Source of the DNA: Escherichia coli
GTDB taxonomy: Bacteria; Pseudomonadota; Gammaproteobacteria; Enterobacterales; Enterobacteriaceae
Length of the DNA stretch: 64,000 nucleotides
NCBI RefSeq assembly: GCF_013315695.1
Contig: NZ_CP054353.1
Reading direction: 5' to 3' (one strand)
Position numbers and translations under genes: made by a program. Positions within the stretch are counted from its first letter, which is position 1; each line of letters begins with the position of its first letter. Under the pieces are notes generated by a model that saw nothing but the letters and a program-made list of their open reading frames with translations, did not search any database and was not told the origin of the DNA. This document shows, piece after piece, positions 4,933-57,623 of the stretch.

Positions 4933-5669
4933 CATGCACTCCGCTGTAAAGAGGCGTTGATCGCTTTCAGCGTCTGCGCTGGATCTACCGATTGCGTTAC
5001 CGGGCGACCAATCACCATATAATCAACACCAGCCGCCAACGCCTGTTCTGGCGTCATAATGCGGCGCTGGTCACCTGCTTCACTCCCCTGCGGACGAATG
5101 CCCGGTGTAACCAGTTTGAACTCCTGACCGAATACCTGTTTAAAGCGCACAGCTTCCTGAGCAGAACACACCACACCATCAAGGCCACATTTTTGCGTCA
5201 GTGCCGCCAGACGTTCTGCATAATCTGCAGGTGACAGTGTCACGCCAAGATCGGCCAGGTCGCTGGCTTCCATGCTGGTCAATACTGTCACAGCAATCAA
5301 AAGCGGTGCATCTTTGCCAAACGGAACCAGTGCCTCACGCGCTGCGGTCATCATACGCGCCCCACCGGAGGCGTGAACATTCACCATCCACACGCCTAAG
5401 TCAGCTGCAGCAGCGACAGCGTGCGCTGCAGTGTTGGGAATATCGTGAAATTTCAGGTCGAGGAAGATATCAAAACCACGCTGTTGAAGTTCGCGTACAA
5501 ATTGAGGTCCAAACAGCGTAAACATCTCTTTGCCGACTTTCAGACGACAATCGCGTGGGTCGATCTTGTCGACAAAGGCCAGCGCGGCATCACGATTATG
5601 ATAATCAAGGGCAACAACCACAGGAGAATTCGTAACAGCGCGGGAAGAAGATGAAGCAGTTAACGTCAT
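4932..5669 (-). CDS. pyrF: orotidine-5'-phosphate decarboxylase
   Basis: Start chosen at [23 protein letters not shown]... within longer ORF 4932..5729; OMP decarboxylase family. Confidence 0.9.
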
Positions 5670-5860
5670 GACCAGACCTTCTTGATGATGGGCACCGGAA
5701 GTGGCGCGAAACAGGTAAACGGCGAGCATTCTACCCGTGGAAATAAAAAATTAACAGTTGCGATTTCTCCCCTGGCAGGCTTTTCCGCGCCGTCGGTGCC
5801 GGAGCACAATAGAACATCAATAATTAGTATGTTGTAACTAAAGTCGGATTTTTTTGAAAA

Positions 5861-19859: not shown

Positions 19860-20168
19860 TCAAGCGGCAATAGCAAAATTCAGAATGCGTATAATCTCAT
19901 TGAAATGTCTCTGATATGTTTCATGATTCTCAGCGTCAACATCTTCAATAAATAATATCAGTTCAGTAATTAGCGCATTAGCATCGTCATAATTTATCCC
20001 TGCTAACTCTGGCGAAGTTTCAGTACCATAGTTAATCGTCAGGTTGTTCATAACTGTGAGGATATGGATAAAATATTTATGACAAACATTACATGTGGTT
20101 TTATTGCCCAGGGTATTATACAGCATATCAAGTAATGCCAGTATTCTACGATTTTGCACATCGTTCAT
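19860..20168 (-). CDS. hypothetical 102-aa protein, co-operonic with upstream lipoprotein gene (islet)
   Basis: ORF 11 bp downstream of lipoprotein ORF stop; AT-rich; not recognised. Confidence 0.5.
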   Translation of the reverse strand: MNDVQNRRILALLDMLYNTLGNKTTCNVCHKYFIHILTVMNNLTINYGTETSPELAGINYDDANALITELILFIEDVDAENHETYQRHFNEIIRILNFAIAA

Positions 20169-21144: not shown

Positions 21145-21207
21145 TAACAGCGGGTGATGCTGCCAACTTACTGATTTAGTGTATGATGGTGTTTTTGAGG
21201 TGCTCCA

Positions 21208-21483
21208 GTGGCTTCTGTTTCTATCAGCTGTCCCTCCTGTTCAGCTACTGACGGGGTGGTGCGTAACGGCAAAAGCACCGCCGGACATCAGCGCTATCTC
21301 TGCTCTCACTGCCGTAAAACATGGCAACTGCAGTTCACTTACACCGCTTCTCAACCCGGTACGCACCAGAAAATCATTGATATGGCCATGAATGGCGTTG
21401 GATGCCGGGCAACAGCCCGCATTATGGGCGTTGGCCTCAACACGATTTTACGTCACTTAAAAAACTCAGGCCGCAGTCGGTAA
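21208..21483 (+). CDS. insA: IS1 InsA
   Basis: 91-aa [46 protein letters not shown]... (zinc finger plus HTH). Confidence 0.95.
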
Positions 21484-21905
21484 CCTCGCGCATACAGCCG
21501 GGCAGTGACGTCATCGTCTGCGCGGAAATGGACGAACAGTGGGGCTATGTCGGGGCTAAATCGCGCCAGCGCTGGCTGTTTTACGCGTATGACAGGCTCC
21601 GGAAGACGGTTGTTGCGCACGTATTCGGTGAACGCACTATGGCGACGCTGGGGCGTCTTATGAGCCTGCTGTCACCCTTTGACGTGGTGATATGGATGAC
21701 GGATGGCTGGCCGCTGTATGAATCCCGCCTGAAGGGAAAGCTGCACGTAATCAGCAAGCGATATACGCAGCGAATTGAGCGGCATAACCTGAATCTGAGG
21801 CAGCACCTGGCACGGCTGGGACGGAAGTCGCTGTCGTTCTCAAAATCGGTGGAGCTGCATGACAAAGTCATCGGGCATTATCTGAACATAAAACACTATC
21901 AATAA
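21402..21905 (+). CDS. insB: IS1 InsB (expressed as InsAB' transposase by -1 frameshift)
   Basis: 167-aa ORF overlapping insA 3' end, typical IS1 organisation. Confidence 0.9.
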
Positions 21906-22126
21906 GTTGGAGTCATTACCTTAACAGCGATAGAAATATTCCACTATATCTAATCATAACCCACCTCTTGACGTTGAGTTTATCTCAGATAATTAAATAG
22001 TAATGTGGCTATTTCCTGGTAATATTCATAAGCAAGTATGAAATTAAATTAAAATACTGCGACTATTTATCATACTTCAAATGAAGAAAAGGCCCCGCAG
22101 GGCCTTTATTTTATACTTAACTTAAA

Positions 22127-28470: not shown

Positions 28471-30065
28471 TGGCTGACATTCTGCTGCTCGATAATATCG
28501 ATTCTTTTACTTACAACCTGGCAGATCAGTTGCGCAGCAATGGTCATAACGTGGTGATTTACCGCAACCATATTCCGGCGCAGACCTTAATTGAACGCCT
28601 GGCGACGATGAGCAATCCGGTGCTGATGCTCTCTCCTGGCCCCGGTGTGCCGAGCGAAGCCGGTTGTATGCCGGAACTCCTCACCCGCCTGCGCGGCAAG
28701 CTGCCAATTATTGGCATTTGCCTCGGTCATCAGGCGATTGTCGAAGCTTACGGGGGCTATGTCGGTCAGGCGGGCGAAATTCTTCACGGTAAAGCGTCGA
28801 GCATTGAACATGACGGTCAGGCGATGTTTGCCGGATTAACAAACCCGCTGCCAGTGGCGCGTTATCACTCGCTGGTTGGCAGTAATATTCCGGCAGGTTT
28901 AACCATCAACGCCCATTTTAATGGCATGGTGATGGCGGTGCGCCATGATGCGGATCGCGTTTGTGGATTCCAGTTCCATCCGGAATCCATTCTTACTACC
29001 CAGGGCGCTCGCCTGCTGGAACAAACGCTGGCCTGGGCGCAGCAGAAACTAGAGCCAACCAACACGCTGCAACCGATTCTGGAAAAACTGTATCAGGCGC
29101 AGACCCTTAGTCAGCAGGAAAGCCACCAGCTATTTTCAGCGGTGGTGCGTGGCGAACTGAAACCGGAACAACTGGCGGCGGCGCTGGTGAGCATGAAAAT
29201 TCGCGGCGAGCACCCGAATGAAATCGCCGGGGCAGCAACCGCGCTACTGGAAAACGCCGCGCCGTTCCCGCGCCCGGATTATCTGTTTGCCGATATCGTC
29301 GGTACTGGCGGTGACGGCAGCAACAGTATCAATATTTCTACCGCCAGTGCGTTTGTCGCCGCGGCCTGCGGGCTGAAAGTGGCGAAACACGGCAACCGTA
29401 GCGTCTCCAGTAAATCCGGCTCGTCGGATCTGCTGGCGGCGTTCGGTATTAATCTTGATATGAACGCCGATAAATCGCGCCAGGCGCTGGATGAGTTAGG
29501 CGTCTGTTTCCTCTTTGCGCCGAAATATCACACCGGATTCCGCCATGCAATGCCGGTTCGCCAGCAACTGAAAACCCGCACCCTGTTCAATGTTCTGGGG
29601 CCATTAATTAACCCGGCGCATCCTCCGCTGGCGTTAATTGGTGTCTACAGCCCGGAGCTGGTGCTGCCGATTGCCGAAACCTTGCGCGTGCTGGGGTATC
29701 AACGCGCGGCGGTGGTGCACAGCGGCGGGATGGATGAAGTTTCATTACACGCGCCGACAATCGTTGCCGAACTGCATGACGGCGAAATTAAAAGCTATCA
29801 GCTCACCGCAGAAGACTTTGGCCTGACACCCTACCACCAGGAGCAATTGGCAGGCGGAACACCGGAAGAAAACCGTGACATTTTAACACGCTTGTTACAA
29901 GGTAAAGGCGACGCCGCCCATGAAGCAGCCGTCGCGGCGAATGTCGCCATGTTAATGCGCCTGCATGGCCATGAAGATCTGCAAGCCAATGCGCAAACCG
30001 TTCTTGAGGTACTGCGCAGTGGTTCCGCTTACGACAGAGTCACCGCACTGGCGGCACGAGGGTAA
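28470..30065 (+). CDS. trpD: anthranilate synthase component II / anthranilate phosphoribosyltransferase
   Basis: 531-aa bifunctional ORF (GATase plus PRT domain), overlapping trpE stop. Confidence 0.95.
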
Positions 30066-31427
30066 ATGATGCAAACCGTTTTAGCGAAAATCGTCGCAGA
30101 CAAGGCGATTTGGGTAGAAACCCGCAAAGAGCAGCAACCGCTGGCCAGTTTTCAGAATGAGGTTCAGCCGAGCACGCGACATTTTTATGATGCACTTCAG
30201 GGCGCACGCACGGCGTTTATTCTGGAGTGTAAAAAAGCGTCGCCGTCAAAAGGCGTGATCCGTGATGATTTCGATCCGGCACGCATTGCAACCGTCTACA
30301 GAAATTACGCTTCGGCAATTTCGGTGCTGACTGACGAGAAATATTTTCAGGGGAGCTTTGATTTCCTCCCCATTGTCAGCCAAATCGCCCCACAGCCGAT
30401 TTTATGTAAAGACTTTATTATCGACCCTTACCAGATCTATCTGGCGCGCTATTACCAGGCTGATGCCTGCTTATTAATGCTTTCAGTACTGGATGACGAA
30501 CAATATCGCCAGCTTGCCGCCGTCGCCCACAGTCTGGAGATGGGTGTGCTGACCGAAGTCAGTAATGAAGAGGAACTGGAGCGCGCCATTGCATTGGGGG
30601 CAAAGGTCGTTGGCATCAACAACCGCGATCTGCGCGATTTGTCGATTGATCTCAACCGTACCCGCGAGCTTGCACCGAAACTGGGGCACAACGTGACGGT
30701 AATCAGCGAATCCGGCATCAATACTTACGCTCAGGTGCGCGAGTTAAGCCACTTCGCTAACGGTTTTCTGATTGGTTCGGCGTTGATGGCCCATGACGAT
30801 TTGAACGCCGCCGTGCGCCGGGTGTTGCTGGGTGAGAATAAAGTGTGTGGCCTGACGCGTGGGCAAGATGCTAAAGCAGCTTATGACGCGGGCGCGATTT
30901 ACGGTGGGTTGATTTTTGTTGCGACATCACCGCGTTGCGTCAACGTTGAACAGGCGCAGGAAGTGATGGCTGCGGCACCGTTGCAGTATGTTGGCGTGTT
31001 CCGCAATCACGATATTGCCGATGTGGTGGACAAAGCTAAGGTGTTATCGCTGGCGGCAGTGCAACTGCATGGTAAAGAAGATCAGCTGTATATCGACACT
31101 CTGCGTGAGGCTCTGCCAGCACACGTCGCCATCTGGAAGGCTTTAAGTGTCGGTGAAACTCTTCCCGCGCGCGATTTTCAGCACATCGATAAATATGTAT
31201 TCGACAACGGTCAGGGCGGGAGCGGACAACGTTTCGACTGGTCACTATTAAATGGTCAATCGCTTGGCAACGTTCTGCTGGCGGGGGGCTTAGGCGCAGA
31301 TAACTGCGTGGAAGCGGCACAAACCGGCTGCGCCGGACTTGATTTTAATTCTGCTGTAGAGTCGCAACCGGGCATCAAAGACGCACGTCTTTTGGCCTCG
31401 GTTTTCCAGACGCTGCGCGCATATTAA
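30066..31427 (+). CDS. trpC: indole-3-glycerol phosphate synthase / phosphoribosylanthranilate isomerase
   Basis: 453-aa bifunctional ORF. Confidence 0.95.
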
Positions 31428-31438
31428 GGAAAGGAACA

Positions 31439-32632
31439 ATGACAACATTACTTAACCCGTATTTTGGTGAGTTTGGCGGCATGTACGTGCCACAAATCCT
31501 GATGCCTGCTCTGCGCCAGCTGGAAGAAGCTTTTGTCAGTGCGCAAAAAGATCCTGAATTTCAGGCTCAGTTCAACGACCTGCTGAAAAACTATGCCGGG
31601 CGTCCAACCGCGCTGACCAAATGCCAGAACATTACAGCCGGGACGAACACCACGCTGTATCTGAAGCGCGAAGATTTGCTGCACGGCGGCGCGCATAAAA
31701 CTAACCAGGTGCTGGGACAGGCGTTGCTGGCGAAGCGGATGGGTAAAACGGAAATCATCGCCGAAACCGGAGCCGGTCAGCATGGCGTGGCGTCGGCCCT
31801 TGCCAGCGCCCTGCTCGGCCTGAAATGCCGTATTTATATGGGTGCCAAAGACGTTGAACGCCAGTCGCCAAACGTTTTTCGTATGCGCTTAATGGGTGCG
31901 GAAGTGATCCCGGTACATAGCGGTTCCGCGACGCTGAAAGATGCCTGTAACGAGGCGCTGCGCGACTGGTCCGGCAGTTATGAAACCGCGCACTATATGC
32001 TGGGCACCGCAGCTGGCCCACATCCTTATCCGACCATTGTCCGTGAGTTTCAGCGAATGATTGGCGAAGAAACCAAAGCACAGATTCTGGAAAGAGAAGG
32101 TCGCCTGCCGGATGCGGTTATCGCCTGTGTTGGCGGCGGTTCGAATGCCATCGGCATGTTTGCAGATTTCATCAACGAAACCGACGTCGGCCTGATTGGT
32201 GTGGAGCCTGGCGGCCACGGTATCGAAACTGGCGAGCACGGCGCACCGTTAAAACATGGTCGCGTGGGCATCTATTTCGGTATGAAAGCGCCGATGATGC
32301 AAACCGAAGACGGGCAAATTGAAGAGTCTTACTCCATTTCTGCCGGGCTGGATTTCCCGTCCGTCGGCCCGCAACATGCGTATCTCAACAGCACTGGACG
32401 CGCTGATTACGTGTCTATTACCGACGATGAAGCCCTGGAAGCCTTTAAAACGCTTTGCCTGCATGAAGGGATCATCCCGGCGCTGGAATCCTCCCACGCC
32501 CTGGCCCATGCGCTGAAAATGATGCGCGAAAATCCGGAAAAAGAGCAGCTATTGGTGGTTAACCTTTCCGGTCGCGGCGATAAAGACATCTTCACCGTTC
32601 ACGATATTTTGAAAGCACGAGGGGAAATCTGA
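31439..32632 (+). CDS. trpB: tryptophan synthase beta chain
   Basis: 397-aa PLP enzyme (HGGAHKTNQ lysine motif). Confidence 0.95.
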
Positions 32633-33438
32633 TGGAACGCTACGAATCTCTGTTTGCCCGTTTGAAGGAGCGCAAAGAAGGCGCATTCGTTCCTTTCGTC
32701 ACCCTCGGTGATCCGGGCATTGAGCAGTCGCTGAAAATTATCGATGCGCTAATTGAAGCCGGTGCTGACGCGCTGGAGTTAGGCATCCCCTTCTCCGACC
32801 CACTGGCAGATGGCCCGACGATTCAAAACGCCACACTGCGTGCCTTTGCGGCAGGTGTGACCCCGGCGCAGTGCTTTGAGATGCTGGCACTCATTCGCCA
32901 GAAACACCCGACCATTCCCATTGGCCTGCTGATGTATGCCAACCTGGTGTTTAACAAAGGCATTGATGAGTTTTATGCCCAGTGCGAAAAAGTCGGCGTC
33001 GATTCGGTGCTGGTTGCCGATGTGCCCGTGGAAGAGTCCGCGCCCTTCCGCCAGGCCGCGTTGCGTCATAATGTCGCACCTATCTTTATCTGCCCGCCAA
33101 ATGCCGATGACGACCTGCTGCGCCAGATAGCCTCTTACGGTCGTGGTTACACCTATTTATTGTCGCGTGCGGGCGTGACCGGCGCAGAAAACCGCGCCGC
33201 GTTACCCCTCAATCATCTGGTCACGAAGCTGAAAGAATACAATGCTGCGCCTCCATTGCAGGGATTTGGTATTTCCGCCCCGGATCAGGTAAAAGCAGCG
33301 ATTGATGCAGGAGCTGCGGGCGCGATTTCTGGTTCGGCCATCGTTAAAATCATCGAGCAACATATTAATGAGCCAGAGAAAATGCTGGCGGCACTGAAAG
33401 CTTTTGTACAACCGATGAAAGCGGCGACGCGCAGTTAA
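32632..33438 (+). CDS. trpA: tryptophan synthase alpha chain
   Basis: 268-aa ORF overlapping trpB stop. Confidence 0.95.
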
Positions 33439-33442
33439 TCCC

Positions 33443-33470
33443 ACAGCCGCCAGTTCCGCTGGCGGCATTT
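33443..33470 (+). terminator. trp operon terminator
   Basis: cagccgccagttccgctggcggc hairpin followed by T-run. Confidence 0.8.
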
Positions 33471-33818
33471 TTACTTTCTTTAACGAAGCCGGAAAAATCC
33501 TAAATTCATTTATTATTTATCTTTTTACCGTTTCGCTTACCCCTGTCGAACGTCAACTTACGTCTTTTTTCCGCCCAACAGTAATATAATCAAACAAATT
33601 AATCCCGCAACATAACACCAGTAAAGTCAATAATTTTCTCTAAGTCACTTATTCCTCAGGCAATTGTTAATATATCCAGAATGTTCCTCAAAATATATTT
33701 TTCCTCTTTTTTCTCGTTACGCTTAATTTGACTAATTCTCATTTGCGACTAATTTTAATGAGTGTCGACACACAACACTCATATTAATCAAACAATGCAG
33801 CGCAACGGGAGAAATAAC

Positions 33819-33998
33819 ATGGCCGAACATCGTGGTGGTTCAGGAAATTTCGCCGAAGACCGTGAGAAGGCATCCGACGCAGGCCGTAAAGGCGGTCAGC
33901 ATAGCGGCGGTAATTTTAAAAATGATCCGCAACGCGCATCTGAAGCAGGTAAAAAATGCGGTCAACAAAGCGGTGGTAATAAATCAGGAAAATCCTGA
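33819..33998 (+). CDS. yciG: KGG-repeat stress protein YciG
   Basis: 59-aa ORF MAEHRGGSGNFAEDREKASDAGRKGGQHSGGNFKNDPQRASEAGKKCGQQSGGNKSGKS. Confidence 0.85.
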   Translation: MAEHRGGSGNFAEDREKASDAGRKGGQHSGGNFKNDPQRASEAGKKCGQQSGGNKSGKS

Positions 33999-34083
33999 TT
34001 CACCGTTCATTATTAATATCAGCTGATAAAGATAATTGCATCTGCGGGCCGTATGGCTCGCAGTGATTTCACTGGAGAAAAAT

Positions 34084-34584
34084 ATGAATATGAAGACCAT
34101 TGAAGATGTATTTATTCACCTGCTTTCAGACACCTACAGTGCAGAAAAACAATTAACACGTGCACTGGCAAAACTCGCTAGAGCAACATCAAACGAAAAA
34201 TTAAGTCAGGCTTTTCATGCGCACCTCGAGGAAACACATGGACAGATTGAACGTATTGATCAAGTTGTGGAATCAGAATCGAATCTGAAAATTAAGCGCA
34301 TGAAATGTGTGGCAATGGAAGGTCTTATTGAAGAAGCTAATGAGGTCATCGAAAGTACCGAGAAAAACGAAGTGCGTGATGCCGCACTGATTGCCGCAGC
34401 ACAGAAAGTCGAGCATTATGAGATTGCCAGTTACGGGACATTAGCGACGCTGGCTGAACAATTAGGTTACCGTAAAGCAGCTAAGCTTCTGAAAGAAACT
34501 CTTGAAGAAGAAAAGGCCACCGACATCAAACTAACTGATCTGGCCCTTAATAACGTAAATAAGAAAGCCGAAAATAAAGCCTGA
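34084..34584 (+). CDS. yciF: DUF892/ferritin-like protein YciF
   Basis: 166-aa ORF MNMKTIEDVFIHLLSDTYSAEKQLTRALAKLARATS... Confidence 0.9.
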   Translation: MNMKTIEDVFIHLLSDTYSAEKQLTRALAKLARATSNEKLSQAFHAHLEETHGQIERIDQVVESESNLKIKRMKCVAMEGLIEEANEVIESTEKNEVRDAALIAAAQKVEHYEIASYGTLATLAEQLGYRKAAKLLKETLEEEKATDIKLTDLALNNVNKKAENKA

Positions 34585-34629
34585 AATATGAACTTTAACT
34601 TTTAGTCATTTTATAAAGAGGACATTTTC

Positions 34630-34921
34630 ATGAATCGTATTGAACATTATCATGACTGGTTACGTGACGCCCACGCAATGGAAAAGCAAGCCGAATCTAT
34701 GCTTTAATCCATGGCCAGCCGTATAGATAATTATCCTGAACTACGCGCTCGTATTGAACAACATCTTAGTGAAACCAAAAACCGATTGTTCAACTGGAAA
34801 CTATTCTTGATCGTAATGACATTTCACGTTCAGTCATTAAAGATTCCATGAGTAAAATGGCTGCGCTTGGGCAGTCAATCGGTGGTATATTTCCTTCTGA
34901 TGAAATAGTCAAAGGCTCTAT
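34630..34921 (+). pseudogene. yciE: yciE pseudogene: in-frame TAA at codon 26, 1-bp deletion frameshift, 3' end removed by IS1
   Basis: MNRIEHYHDWLRDAHAMEKQAESML* then YciE-like sequence continues in the same frame (SMASRIDNYPELRARIEQHLSETKN), then shifts frame (…SVIKDSMSKMAALGQSIGGIFPSDEIVKGS) until the IS1 end. Confidence 0.8.
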
Positions 34922-34976
34922 GGTGATGCTGCCAACTTACTGATTTAGTGTATGATGGTGTTTTTGAGGTGCTCCA

Positions 34977-35252
34977 GTGGCTTCTGTTTCTATCAGCTGT
35001 CCCTCCTGTTCAGCTACTGACGGGGTGGTGCGTAACGGCAAAAGCACCGCCGGACATCAGCGCTATCTCTGCTCTCACTGCCGTAAAACATGGCAACTGC
35101 AGTTCACTTACACCGCTTCTCAACCCGGTACGCACCAGAAAATCATTGATATGGCCATGAATGGCGTTGGATGCCGGGCAACAGCCCGCATTATGGGCGT
35201 TGGCCTCAACACGATTTTACGTCACTTAAAAAACTCAGGCCGCAGTCGGTAA
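34977..35252 (+). CDS. insA: IS1 InsA
   Basis: Identical translation to copy 1. Confidence 0.95.
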
Positions 35253-35674
35253 CCTCGCGCATACAGCCGGGCAGTGACGTCATCGTCTGCGCGGAAATGG
35301 ACGAACAGTGGGGCTATGTCGGGGCTAAATCGCGCCAGCGCTGGCTGTTTTACGCGTATGACAGGCTCCGGAAGACGGTTGTTGCGCACGTATTCGGTGA
35401 ACGCACTATGGCGACGCTGGGGCGTCTTATGAGCCTGCTGTCACCCTTTGACGTGGTGATATGGATGACGGATGGCTGGCCGCTGTATGAATCCCGCCTG
35501 AAGGGAAAGCTGCACGTAATCAGCAAGCGATATACGCAGCGAATTGAGCGGCATAACCTGAATCTGAGGCAGCACCTGGCACGGCTGGGACGGAAGTCGC
35601 TGTCGTTCTCAAAATCGGTGGAGCTGCATGACAAAGTCATCGGGCATTATCTGAACATAAAACACTATCAATAA
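35171..35674 (+). CDS. insB: IS1 InsB
   Basis: Identical translation to copy 1. Confidence 0.9.
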
Positions 35675-35888
35675 GTTGGAGTCATTACCGTGATAAACAT
35701 CCGGTTTCTTCCACCATCGCACCGGACAGGCGACTATGAGGGGACAACGCCGCGCTCCGTTAACGCGGTAAACCCCGGTGTGTATCGTTTTTGATTATCC
35801 CCGCACACTCGCGCAGAGGAGTCTCCCTGTCGGGCTGCGGTCTCTGTTAATGAGGGAATACAGCGACGATACGGCGCATCAACAAAAC

Positions 35889-36356
35889 TTATTTCAGGCA
35901 CTGAGTACGGATATATTCCTGCGCCCCTTCCAGTTGCTTCTGCATCGTCATCAGCCGCTCTCTGAGGGTGAAATAATCCCGTGTAACGGTGTCTGCCAGT
36001 TGGGGGCCGGTTGCATTATCCACGCGGGCGGTGCCGGTGGCTTCACGCACGGGACCTGGACAGGTGGCGTTGATACGCAGGCGCTTACGACCAGCGGCAA
36101 CGTCAGCGCGAAGAGTTTCATTTTCAGCTTTCGCATCAGCTAACTCCTTCGTGTATTTTGCATCGAGCGCAGCAACATCACGCTGACGCATCTGCATGTC
36201 AGTAATTGCCGCGTTCGCCAGCTTCAGTTCTCTGACATTTTTGTCGCGCTGGGCTTTGTAGGTAATGGCGTTATCACGGTAATGATTCAGCCCCAGACTA
36301 AGCGCACCACAGGCCACCAGCAGGGCAATGATGACCACGCACAGTACGCGGTTCAT
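35889..36356 (-). CDS. i-spanin Rz
   Basis: 155-aa ORF …[70 protein letters not shown]… closely resembles lambda Rz. Confidence 0.9.
35951..36136 (-). CDS. o-spanin Rz1 lipoprotein (embedded in Rz, +1 frame)
   Basis: 61-aa [25 protein letters not shown]…[32 protein letters not shown]; lipobox and Pro-rich, lambda Rz1-like. Confidence 0.85.
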
Positions 36357-36357
36357 T

Positions 36358-36456
36358 TCACCACCAGCGTATCTGACCGATGAAATAACCGGAGGCCATA
36401 ATCACAAACACCAGCCAGATAAGAATGAACTTCCAGGTGGATAATTTTTCAGCCAT
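36358..36456 (-). CDS. possible 32-aa single-TM peptide between endolysin and Rz
   Basis: [35 protein letters not shown] read from sequence; stop two bases before the Rz start codon; below ORF-track cutoff. Confidence 0.3.
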
Positions 36457-36654
36457 CACTCGAATCTCCCGAATCAGTTTGCTAAAATCAAACACACTTT
36501 CTCCTTTGACTTTTCCGGAGTCAGGAAACACAAAACCCCGCTTGGTGCCAACAAACGGGGTTTTTACTTTTATTCACTTACGTTTCGCCAGTTCGCAGGA
36601 TTTCGTGTTATCCGCCCGCGTGGCCATGCCTTATTTTTCAGCAAAATATTCTGC

Positions 36655-37188
36655 TTATCTGTCGATTCCCCAGCACGCCAGCGCGCTCTCCTGGTCACGA
36701 CGGGATACCTGACCATAACAGTTGTTTGAGCGGATACGGCAGTCTCTGCCACCGTCCTTAATCCACCAGCGAATCGCCTCACACGCTCCCCTGCGATCAC
36801 CTGCATTAATTCGTTTATAAAACGTCGACGGGAAACACTTACCGGGACCAATGTTGTACGGACAGAATGACGCGATCCCCGCTTTCTGGGGTTCACTCAA
36901 TGGCACTCTGATGTTTTTCTCCACCCATGCCAGCGCCTCATCACGCTCAATGGCGTTAACCCGGTCGCATTTTTCCTTCGACAACTTCATGCCCGGAACG
37001 ACAGGTTTGCCATCCACCAGGATGGCACCGCGGCAGATGGTCCAGATACCCGCACCATCACGGTATGCCGTGGTGTGGTTACCTTCCTTTTCATCCAGAA
37101 ACTGGTCGAGAATGTCAGGCGCAGGCGCACCAGCGGCAATCAGCGCCAGAACGGCAGCCGACAGGCCGTATCTGATTTTTGCGTTCAT
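36655..37188 (-). CDS. phage endolysin (GH24 lysozyme with N-terminal signal-anchor-release-like segment), RrrD-like
   Basis: 177-aa ORF MNAKIRYGLSAAVLALIAAGAPAPDILDQFLDEKEGNHTTAYRDGAGIWTICRG… closely resembles cryptic-prophage lysozyme RrrD. Confidence 0.9.
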   Translation of the reverse strand: MNAKIRYGLSAAVLALIAAGAPAPDILDQFLDEKEGNHTTAYRDGAGIWTICRGAILVDGKPVVPGMKLSKEKCDRVNAIERDEALAWVEKNIRVPLSEPQKAGIASFCPYNIGPGKCFPSTFYKRINAGDRRGACEAIRWWIKDGGRDCRIRSNNCYGQVSRRDQESALACWGIDR

Positions 37189-55593: not shown

Positions 55594-55842
55594 ATGGCAA
55601 GACTTATTCTGCTCACTGAGTGGGCAAAAGAGGAATTCAGTGAACCGGTCCCTACTCCGAGTACGTTAAGTAAATACGCTAAAGCCGGAATGATATTTCC
55701 TCTCCCCAAAAAAGTTGGAAGACGCTGGCGAGTGGATCCGCAAGCTCGCTTTGTCGGAATGGTAAACAAGCCGGAGGTGATCGCCACAGATCACCCTGCT
55801 TTGAAGAGGATACTGGAAGATGGCGCGCCCGCGAAAATATAA
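55594..55842 (+). CDS. xis: excisionase-like protein
   Basis: 82-aa ORF immediately upstream of and overlapping the integrase gene. Confidence 0.6.
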   Translation: MARLILLTEWAKEEFSEPVPTPSTLSKYAKAGMIFPLPKKVGRRWRVDPQARFVGMVNKPEVIATDHPALKRILEDGAPAKI

Positions 55843-56950
55843 AACCGATGTTCCGGGATTATCTCCGTATTTTGACAAAAGAAATAACAAAGTTTACTGG
55901 CGTTACAGGCATCCCATAACAGGCAAAAATCACGGTCTCGGCAGTATTGACCAGAAACTGGCAGAAACTATTGCAGCAGAAGCGAACAGCCGTCTTGCCC
56001 GGCAGCAAATGGAACAAATGCTCAGTCTGCAGGAGAAAATTATTAGTGATACCGGCGGTTCATCAACCGTTACCATTTTTCTGAATAATTACAGAAAAAT
56101 TCAACAGGAAAGATATGAAAACGGCGAGATCAAACTCAACACGCTGAAACAGAAAGCAGCTCCTCTCAGGGTATTTGATGAACGTTTTGGCACCAGACCG
56201 TTAGATGCCATAACCGTAAAAGATGTGGTATCAGTACTGGAAGAGTACAAGGCCAGAGGACATAACAGAATGGGACAAATTTTCAGGAAAGTACTGATCG
56301 ATGTTTTCCGGGAAGCTCAGCAAACGGGCGATGTCCCGCCAGGCTTTAACCCTGCAGAATCGGCAAAAAAACCGCAGGTGCGGATATCAAGACAGCGACT
56401 GACTTTTGATGAGTGGATGATGATTTATAACGCAGCGGAAAAGGATGGTTACTTTTTACAGCGCGGTATGCTGCTGGCACTGATGACAGGCCAGCGCCTT
56501 TCAGATATTTGCAAAATGCAATTTTCGGATATCCGGGATGGTTATCTTCATGTCGAACAGCAAAAAACAGGAACCCGGATTGCCATCCCTCTGGCTCTGC
56601 GTTGCGATAAATTAAATCTCACCCTGGATGATGTGGTGTCATCCTGCCGCGATTGCGTTCTTAGTCCGTGGCTATTGCACCACCATCACGCGAAAGGGAC
56701 AGCTAAGCGCGGCGGGATGGTTAAGCCAGCAACATTAACCGTTGCATTTAAAAAAGCCCGGGATTCTGTGGATTACAACTGGCGTGCTAATGGCACCCCT
56801 CCCTCTTTCCATGAGCAGAGATCTTTATCAGAGCGATTGTTCAGAGAGCAGGGGGTTGATACCAAAATTTTGCTAGGCCATTCGAATCAAAAAATGACCG
56901 ATATTTACAACGACGCACGCGGTAAGGAATGGAAAAAACTGGTCATTTGA
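55820..56950 (+). CDS. int: tyrosine recombinase (lambda-type integrase)
   Basis: 376-aa ORF with catalytic-region motifs (…LMTGQRLSDICKMQFSDI…, …HHHAKGTAKRGG…, …LLGHSNQKMTDIY…); 3' end 35 bp from ompW stop. Confidence 0.85.
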   Translation: MARPRKYKTDVPGLSPYFDKRNNKVYWRYRHPITGKNHGLGSIDQKLAETIAAEANSRLARQQMEQMLSLQEKIISDTGGSSTVTIFLNNYRKIQQERYENGEIKLNTLKQKAAPLRVFDERFGTRPLDAITVKDVVSVLEEYKARGHNRMGQIFRKVLIDVFREAQQTGDVPPGFNPAESAKKPQVRISRQRLTFDEWMMIYNAAEKDGYFLQRGMLLALMTGQRLSDICKMQFSDIRDGYLHVEQQKTGTRIAIPLALRCDKLNLTLDDVVSSCRDCVLSPWLLHHHHAKGTAKRGGMVKPATLTVAFKKARDSVDYNWRANGTPPSFHEQRSLSERLFREQGVDTKILLGHSNQKMTDIYNDARGKEWKKLVI

Positions 56951-56984: not shown

Positions 56985-57623
56985 TTAAAAACGATATCCT
57001 GCGGAGAACATAAACACCCACGGATCCAGTCGTACCGAGTCTTTTACGGTAGTAACACCAGATTTGTACTTAGCCGTGGTATCGATATCCATGTACCACA
57101 CTGACATGTTAACCAACCAGTCACGGTTAATCAGATAATCAACCCCCACCTGCCCGGCAGCTCCCCAGGAATCTTTCAGACTGAGATCGGAAAGCCCCGC
57201 CTCTTTGCCATGATCGTTAAATCCATTATCAAAGAAGGTGGTGTAGTTAATACCTGCCCCAACGTAAGGACGGAATTTGCTGCTGGCATCACCAAAATAC
57301 CACTGCGCCATCAGTGTTGGCGGCAGATGATGAACGGTTGCAATATCGCCGGTCGCCCGGGTGCCGATTTTATGGCGGAACGGCGTCGCAGCCAGTAATT
57401 CCACACCAATGTTGTCGGTCGCCATATAAGTAAACGTCAGGCCCAGTTGCGTGTTATTGGTCACGCTGAATCCACCCAGACTTCCTAACGTACCACCAGC
57501 ACCTTCTGTTGGACGTACGGTTGCAGACCCTGCACGCATAAAAAATTCGCCTGCTTCATGCGCATAGGCACTGCCAGAGAGAAGAGTTGTTACTGCCAAA
57601 GCCGCCACTGTTAACTTTTTCAT
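56985..57623 (-). CDS. ompW: outer membrane protein W
   Basis: Start at MKKLTVAALAVTTLLSGSAYA… within ORF 56985..57701; C-terminus …SAGYRF. Confidence 0.9.
   Translation of the reverse strand: MKKLTVAALAVTTLLSGSAYAHEAGEFFMRAGSATVRPTEGAGGTLGSLGGFSVTNNTQLGLTFTYMATDNIGVELLAATPFRHKIGTRATGDIATVHHLPPTLMAQWYFGDASSKFRPYVGAGINYTTFFDNGFNDHGKEAGLSDLSLKDSWGAAGQVGVDYLINRDWLVNMSVWYMDIDTTAKYKSGVTTVKDSVRLDPWVFMFSAGYRF

Follow-up and report, generated by a model that had tools for sequence, protein, structure and literature searches.

The gene yciE in the 64,000-nucleotide stretch of Escherichia coli chromosome analysed here (hereafter the window) is, judging from its intact K-12 orthologue at the same locus, three disabling lesions and the pseudogene call made by PGAP, a pseudogene, and its remnant very probably decayed stepwise, through a frameshift, a stop codon, the insertion of an IS1 element and deletions starting at the end of that element. 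The remnant itself was already known, as RefSeq/PGAP flags it as a pseudogene in near-identical genomes, and in this respect it is an ordinary dead gene. What we add is the order of the events, the deletion at the IS1 end by which the prophage next to yciE lost its structural genes, and the finding that one IS1 target was used repeatedly.

The gene order of the window is pdeR ... topA ... trpEDCBA - yciG - yciF - yciE' - IS1 - prophage - ompW - yciC .... Its nearest complete genomes include those of strains AF3 (NZ_OZ547117.1), which is 100% identical across window positions 29760-35689, MSB1_4I (NZ_LR898874.1), which is collinear with the entire window save for one added ISKpn26, and MS 21-1 (NZ_CP146670.1). 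The ISKpn26 element (IS5 family, ~1.2 kb) sits in MSB1_4I at window position ~20003-20006 and is missing from the window, so that the source strain is a separate member of the same clone. The window and MSB1_4I differ by 7 substitutions in 9.2 kb, five of them packed into 106 bp (36628-36733) between the Rz and lysozyme genes of the prophage; this cluster looks like a small recombination patch, perhaps derived from another prophage.

The yciGFE region of the window contains the following features:

33819-33998, plus strand: yciG, first gene of yciGFE, full length (59 aa), its third KGG motif altered by G47C (T at 33957)
34084-34584, plus strand: yciF, intact DUF892 paralogue of yciE (166 aa; Pfam DUF892 E=5e-52 over the full profile length)
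34630-34921, plus strand: yciE pseudogene remnant, equal to nt 1-293 of K-12 yciE less one base (from the alignment and the PGAP pseudogene note)
34705-34707, plus strand: premature TAA at codon 26 (G to T at 34705; GAA in K-12)
34783-34784, plus strand: site of the 1-bp deletion, the oldest lesion (codon 52, CAG, has lost its A)

A preliminary description, based on the letters of the window alone, had called yciE a multiply inactivated pseudogene and proposed checking this against K-12. The reference, K-12 yciE (b1257, 507 nt; DUF892, PF05974; structure 3OGH from CFT073), lies at the same locus, trpA-yciG-yciF-yciE, and is intact, with neither the stop nor the frameshift; aligned with it, the window copy has both, in addition to a truncation associated with IS1. 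The reading frame opens with the ATG at 34630 and meets the TAA at codon 26 and then the 1-bp deletion, just as described; the deletion falls in codon 52, and past it YciE residues 53-97 run on in the shifted frame and are 100% identical to those of K-12. Apart from the two lesions, repairing the frame of 34630-34921 gives residues 1-97 of K-12 YciE unchanged, and the sole other nucleotide difference is a synonymous C to T change at K-12 nt 264 (window 34892). Homology to K-12 yciE ends at 34921, corresponding to nt 293 of 507, and IS1 begins at the next base. The lost portion, codons 98-168, amounts to 214 of the 507 nt (42%), more than the third that had been estimated. This missing part, as an IS1-mediated inversion would leave it, had no match elsewhere in the window, nor was it found in AF3 within 49 kb to the right of IS1.

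The repaired translation matches the Pfam family DUF892 (PF05974) with E=1.5e-28 and a score of 100 bits (cut-off 23.7). The match spans positions 4-95 of the 159 in the profile, so that the remnant retains part of the domain, in more than one frame, instead of a complete domain in one open frame. Stopped, frameshifted and truncated, the window copy could not encode the four-helix bundle of K-12 YciE. In AF3 and MSB1_4I, PGAP gives the identical sequence the label 'DUF892 family protein; frameshifted; internal stop; incomplete; missing C-terminus'; these RefSeq pseudogenes, AC9VVF_RS06620 (AF3) and JMX41_RS11280 (MSB1_4I), are 100% identical to the window yciE and have the same IS1 junction. 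Salmonella YciF binds iron and is a ferroxidase whose activity requires Q54, E113 and E143 (bioRxiv 10.1101/2023.01.20.524870). In an alignment at 25% identity, these ligands correspond to YciE Q52, E107 and E137; in the remnant the frameshift hits the codon for Q52, and E107 and E137 are deleted. The original yciE start would yield a peptide of at most 25 residues, and the window copy is probably unable to give a functional YciE.

To place the two point lesions in time, we counted exact k-mer matches among 5,426 complete E. coli genomes. The 61-mer around the stop occurs in 116 of them and the 62-mer around the deletion in 39, both being present in 31 genomes. A further 83 genomes carry an ST648-type 62-mer with the same deletion plus a G to T change (S47I) 15 nt upstream, which brings the frameshift to a total of ~122 complete genomes. 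Two of the 116 stop genomes match neither frameshift 62-mer exactly. Eight genomes, including TCM3e1 and CE-O153H30, have the deletion with GAA at codon 26, and the yciE genes of these two strains are called only 'frameshifted' by PGAP. A synthetic stop-only query, with the missing A restored, had no exact match in any of the 5,426 complete genomes. These matches point to only three yciE haplotypes: wild type, frameshift only, and frameshift plus stop. Since frameshift-only genomes exist and a stop-only haplotype was not found, we infer that the frameshift came first and that the stop arose inside the frameshift clade. The raw counts (116 versus 39) would suggest that the stop is the older lesion; this order can be ruled out, given that the ST648-type SNP broke the exact 62-mer and that frameshift-only genomes exist. 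Strains of the MS 21-1, ST648 and SMS-3-5 type share the frameshift and the stop with the window, but their yciE pseudogene is full length (506 nt) and has no IS1, and the ST648-type copies add the S47I change.

This order bears on the meaning of the lesions. The preliminary description took three independent lesions as a sign of relaxed selection on yciE in this lineage. They did arise by separate mutations, but in a nested order, and two of them fell on a gene that was already dead. The stop and the IS1 event thus attest to neutral decay after inactivation and are not independent proof of an earlier relaxation of selection.

Two alternatives would deny that the remnant is dead, or that it died in this order. 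If the stop and the frameshift were sequencing or assembly errors, yciE would have been intact until the IS1 event. The deletion does adjoin an A-rich stretch (AAAAACC-G), a context that some platforms miscall, but the deleted A itself lies outside any homopolymer run, and both lesions recur in dozens of complete genomes that different laboratories sequenced independently and on different platforms, and are annotated by PGAP. Their recurrence in 116 and ~122 independent complete assemblies argues that they are not artefacts, and we give this explanation practically no weight. It is also very improbable, if slightly less so, that the locus still makes a useful product by reinitiation or recoding. 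An ATG at 34711, four bases past the TAA, opens a 46-aa reading frame with 24 YciE residues and a hydrophobic out-of-frame tail, which keeps a weak DUF892 signal (E=1.5e-4, under the Pfam cut-off). Nevertheless, this fragment lacks the helices bearing the residues aligned to the YciF ligands E113 and E143, and its tail exists solely through the deletion. The gene is uninterrupted in K-12 and most E. coli, so that the lesions are derived and not conserved recoding signals, and the ST648-type copies add a missense change in this stretch, as neutral decay predicts.

The 3' truncation brings in the insertion sequence and the DNA to its right, for which the relevant features are:

21153-21920, plus strand: second IS1 copy, in direct orientation and 100% identical to the yciE IS1, with the 9-bp duplication TTAACAGCG
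34913-34921, plus strand: left copy of the IS1 target AGGCTCTAT, with no matching copy to the right of IS1
34922-35689, plus strand: IS1 (IS1A type, 768 bp), with insA and insB' in the direction of yciE and no target-site duplication
35690-56984: lambdoid prophage remnant at ompW, from the lysis cassette to the integrase; 35690 is the deletion endpoint
35889-36356, minus strand: Rz-like lysis gene (from annotation and ORFs)
36655-37188, minus strand: lysozyme gene (from annotation and ORFs)
55820-56950: prophage integrase (from annotation and ORFs)

The element at 34922 starts with GGTGATGCTGCC... and has the size (~768 bp), the terminal inverted repeats and the insA/insB' organization with programmed frameshift of the IS1 family: an insA ORF at 34977-35252, the A-run TTAAAAAAC of the programmed frameshift at 35227-35235, and an insB' frame extending to 35674. 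PGAP describes it in AF3 and MSB1_4I as 'IS1-like element IS1A family transposase, programmed frameshift'. The feature that it lacks is the 9-bp target-site duplication, as its flanks are AGGCTCTAT on the left and GTGATAAAC on the right; the second IS1, which has TTAACAGCG on either side, illustrates what a simple insertion looks like. The missing duplication indicates a secondary rearrangement and not that the element falls outside the IS1 family. The preliminary description had the 3' end of yciE lost to IS1. The truncation at IS1 stands, but a simple insertion does not account for it, as there is no target-site duplication and the sequence beyond IS1 is prophage DNA instead of yciE; the phrase hides at least two steps, insertion at AGGCTCTAT and then one or more rightward deletions into the prophage.

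The distribution of the two junctions is narrow. Among complete genomes, the left one occurs only in AF3, MSB1_4I and, independently, strain 510016, and the right one only in MSB1_4I; a search for the right junction of a simple insertion in the clone of the window turned up only the independent events of 510016 and APEC-O117H42. Deletions adjacent to IS1 are reportedly known from classical work on the gal region. A missing target duplication commonly results from an adjacent deletion or from recombination between two IS copies (PMC11708052). The adjacent deletions of IS150 in the long-term evolution experiment (PMC11708052) left one IS and no target duplication, as for the yciE IS1, and IS-adjacent deletions begin exactly at the IS end, again as here, with the difference that in our case the mechanism is deduced from natural isolates.

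What was lost on the right can be followed by comparing the three genomes. The prophage is integrated at the 3' end of ompW, which begins at 56985. MS 21-1 has it in full, with ompW on one side and yciE on the other, and relative to this genome IS1 replaces 24,954 bp. In AF3 the same IS1 junction is followed by cargo genes (VapA/VapB-like, YkgJ-like) and by all of the tail, head and terminase genes. The window lacks positions 1135-26462 of the AF3 locus, that is, 25,328 bp counted from the first base after IS1. Unlike the window, AF3 thus still has a complete ompW prophage to the right of IS1; with IS1 in place, the yciE 3' end gone and the prophage undeleted, its arrangement makes it an informative intermediate. 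MSB1_4I has the arrangement of the window. The ompW prophage of the window keeps an integrase, an excisionase, an exonuclease, dicB, hokD, Q, three tRNA genes, a holin, a lysozyme and Rz, and is devoid of any terminase, head or tail gene. With its structural genes lost by the IS1-end deletion, it would be unable to form particles unaided.

We therefore propose the following sequence of events. The 1-bp deletion at codon 52 killed the gene in an ancestor common to many lineages, including ST648, SMS-3-5 and TCM3e1, and the G to T change that makes codon 26 a TAA followed within a sub-clade of the frameshift lineages; both steps are documented by the haplotypes described above. In a recent ancestor of the window, AF3 and MSB1_4I, IS1 then entered the 9-bp target AGGCTCTAT after nt 293, as the common left junction records. 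To the right of IS1, the yciE 3' end and a fragment of the prophage attachment region would have been lost next, giving the state of AF3, and the branch of the window and MSB1_4I would later have lost 25.3 kb from the IS1 end, including all virion structural genes of the ompW prophage. The end states of these last two steps are directly visible in part, and their mechanism is the more conjectural element. Insertion of IS1 followed by successive deletions from its right end is the simplest reading of the right-hand losses, whose pattern fits deletion adjacent to IS1.

These losses could instead have come from recombination between the yciE IS1 and a second direct IS1 further right. Either route leaves one IS1 without target duplication (PMC11708052), and the element is abundant in this clone, with at least 40 matching pieces in AF3 and MSB1_4I and a second identical copy in the window. 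However, an IS1 at the prophage endpoint occurs in no complete genome other than MSB1_4I, itself deleted; AF3 has the same IS1 and an undeleted prophage, with no second IS1 annotated within the missing 25.3 kb; and the missing segment starts right at the IS1 boundary, which is how adjacent deletions behave. We regard recombination as the less likely route, although one deserving some consideration. On the side of the first inactivation, the loss of yciE in the ancestor of the frameshift clade may have been adaptive instead of neutral. The dead allele is fixed over a large and widespread set of lineages (~122 complete genomes), and IS1 elements disrupt yciE independently in other lineages. Nonetheless, a single founding mutation inherited by descent requires no selection, and the repeated IS1 hits share one hot-spot site, which points to mutational bias; an adaptive loss seems unlikely to us. 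Regarding the two IS1 copies of the window, recombination between them would delete ~13 kb including the trp operon.

The same 9-bp target as in the window, AGGCTCTAT, was used in two other strains by independent events. Strain 510016 has an IS1 differing by 3 nt in an otherwise intact yciE, with AGGCTCTAT on both sides (5033-5818 of the compared locus). In APEC-O117H42, an IS1X2 that is 94% identical and in the opposite orientation adjoins AGGCTCTAT (1770-2545 of the compared locus), and the deletion went leftward, with loss of yciF and of the 5' part of yciE. That three different IS1-family copies landed at the same nucleotide in unrelated strains suggests a target-site hot spot. The outcomes at this site differ: a simple insertion in 510016, a rightward deletion in the window and a leftward deletion removing yciF in APEC-O117H42. 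Strain 26561 has an IS1 between yciF and yciE. A bolder reading is that AGGCTCTAT is a genuine hot spot, used on at least three independent occasions (by IS1A in this clone, an IS1A variant in 510016 and IS1X2 in APEC-O117H42), and, at the same time, that the recurrent loss of yciE, sometimes with yciF, is favoured and not merely tolerated in some extra-intestinal lineages. We consider this combination doubtful; if true, one could use this locus to study, in natural isolates, how IS1 chooses its targets and what a ferritin-like protein of the RpoS regulon costs.

The stress operon yciGFE, of which yciE is the last gene, has a putative RpoS-dependent promoter and was described for Salmonella as yciGFE-katN (PMC8208086); YciE and YciF are paralogues (PMC12419081) that share 25% identity. 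The preliminary description presented yciF and yciG as intact paralogues upstream of yciE. This holds for yciF, which differs from K-12 at 15 nt, 14 of them synonymous and one resulting in I155L, a pattern indicating that the gene is intact and constrained by purifying selection. As for yciG, it is full length, but it encodes a KGG-repeat protein (Pfam KGG, PF10685, E=5e-16) instead of a DUF892 protein and is therefore no paralogue, and it carries the G47C change (GGC to TGC). This is the sole difference from the YciG of K-12 and MS 21-1, both with Gly, and is common only to the window, AF3 and MSB1_4I (WP_001571340.1); it could be either a further decay of the operon or a neutral marker of the clone. 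Divergence from K-12 is uneven along the operon, with 15 substitutions in the 501 nt of yciF and one, lesions aside, in the 292 retained nt of yciE, which may reflect a recombination boundary between the two genes. In 701 of the 5,426 complete genomes there was no megablast match to yciG-yciF-yciE' (query: window 33760-34921), so that the entire operon seems to be missing from ~13% of sequenced strains.

An Rfam scan of 33000-36500 on both strands (E<=0.1) found nothing, and the promoter and terminator scans yielded sites no more numerous than in shuffled controls. Within the terminator scan, two results stood out, namely the trp terminator hairpin, which was already known, and the disappearance of the hairpin following yciE: in K-12 a terminator-like hairpin lies 24-46 nt past the yciE stop, and it falls in the segment deleted from the window, where no terminator-like site was found on the plus strand between yciF and the IS1 end. 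With this predicted terminator gone, yciGFE transcripts probably run on into IS1, where insA is co-directional.

The IS1-end deletion locks in a defective ompW prophage that still has its genes for lysis and regulation, hokD, dicB and its tRNA genes. Within the frameshift-bearing clade, the nested yciE lesions are usable as lineage markers, and the return of different IS1 elements to the same 9-bp target offers a small but concrete case of target-site preference. Finally, YciE appears to be dispensable in nature over many successful lineages of E. coli, while its paralogue YciF stays conserved.
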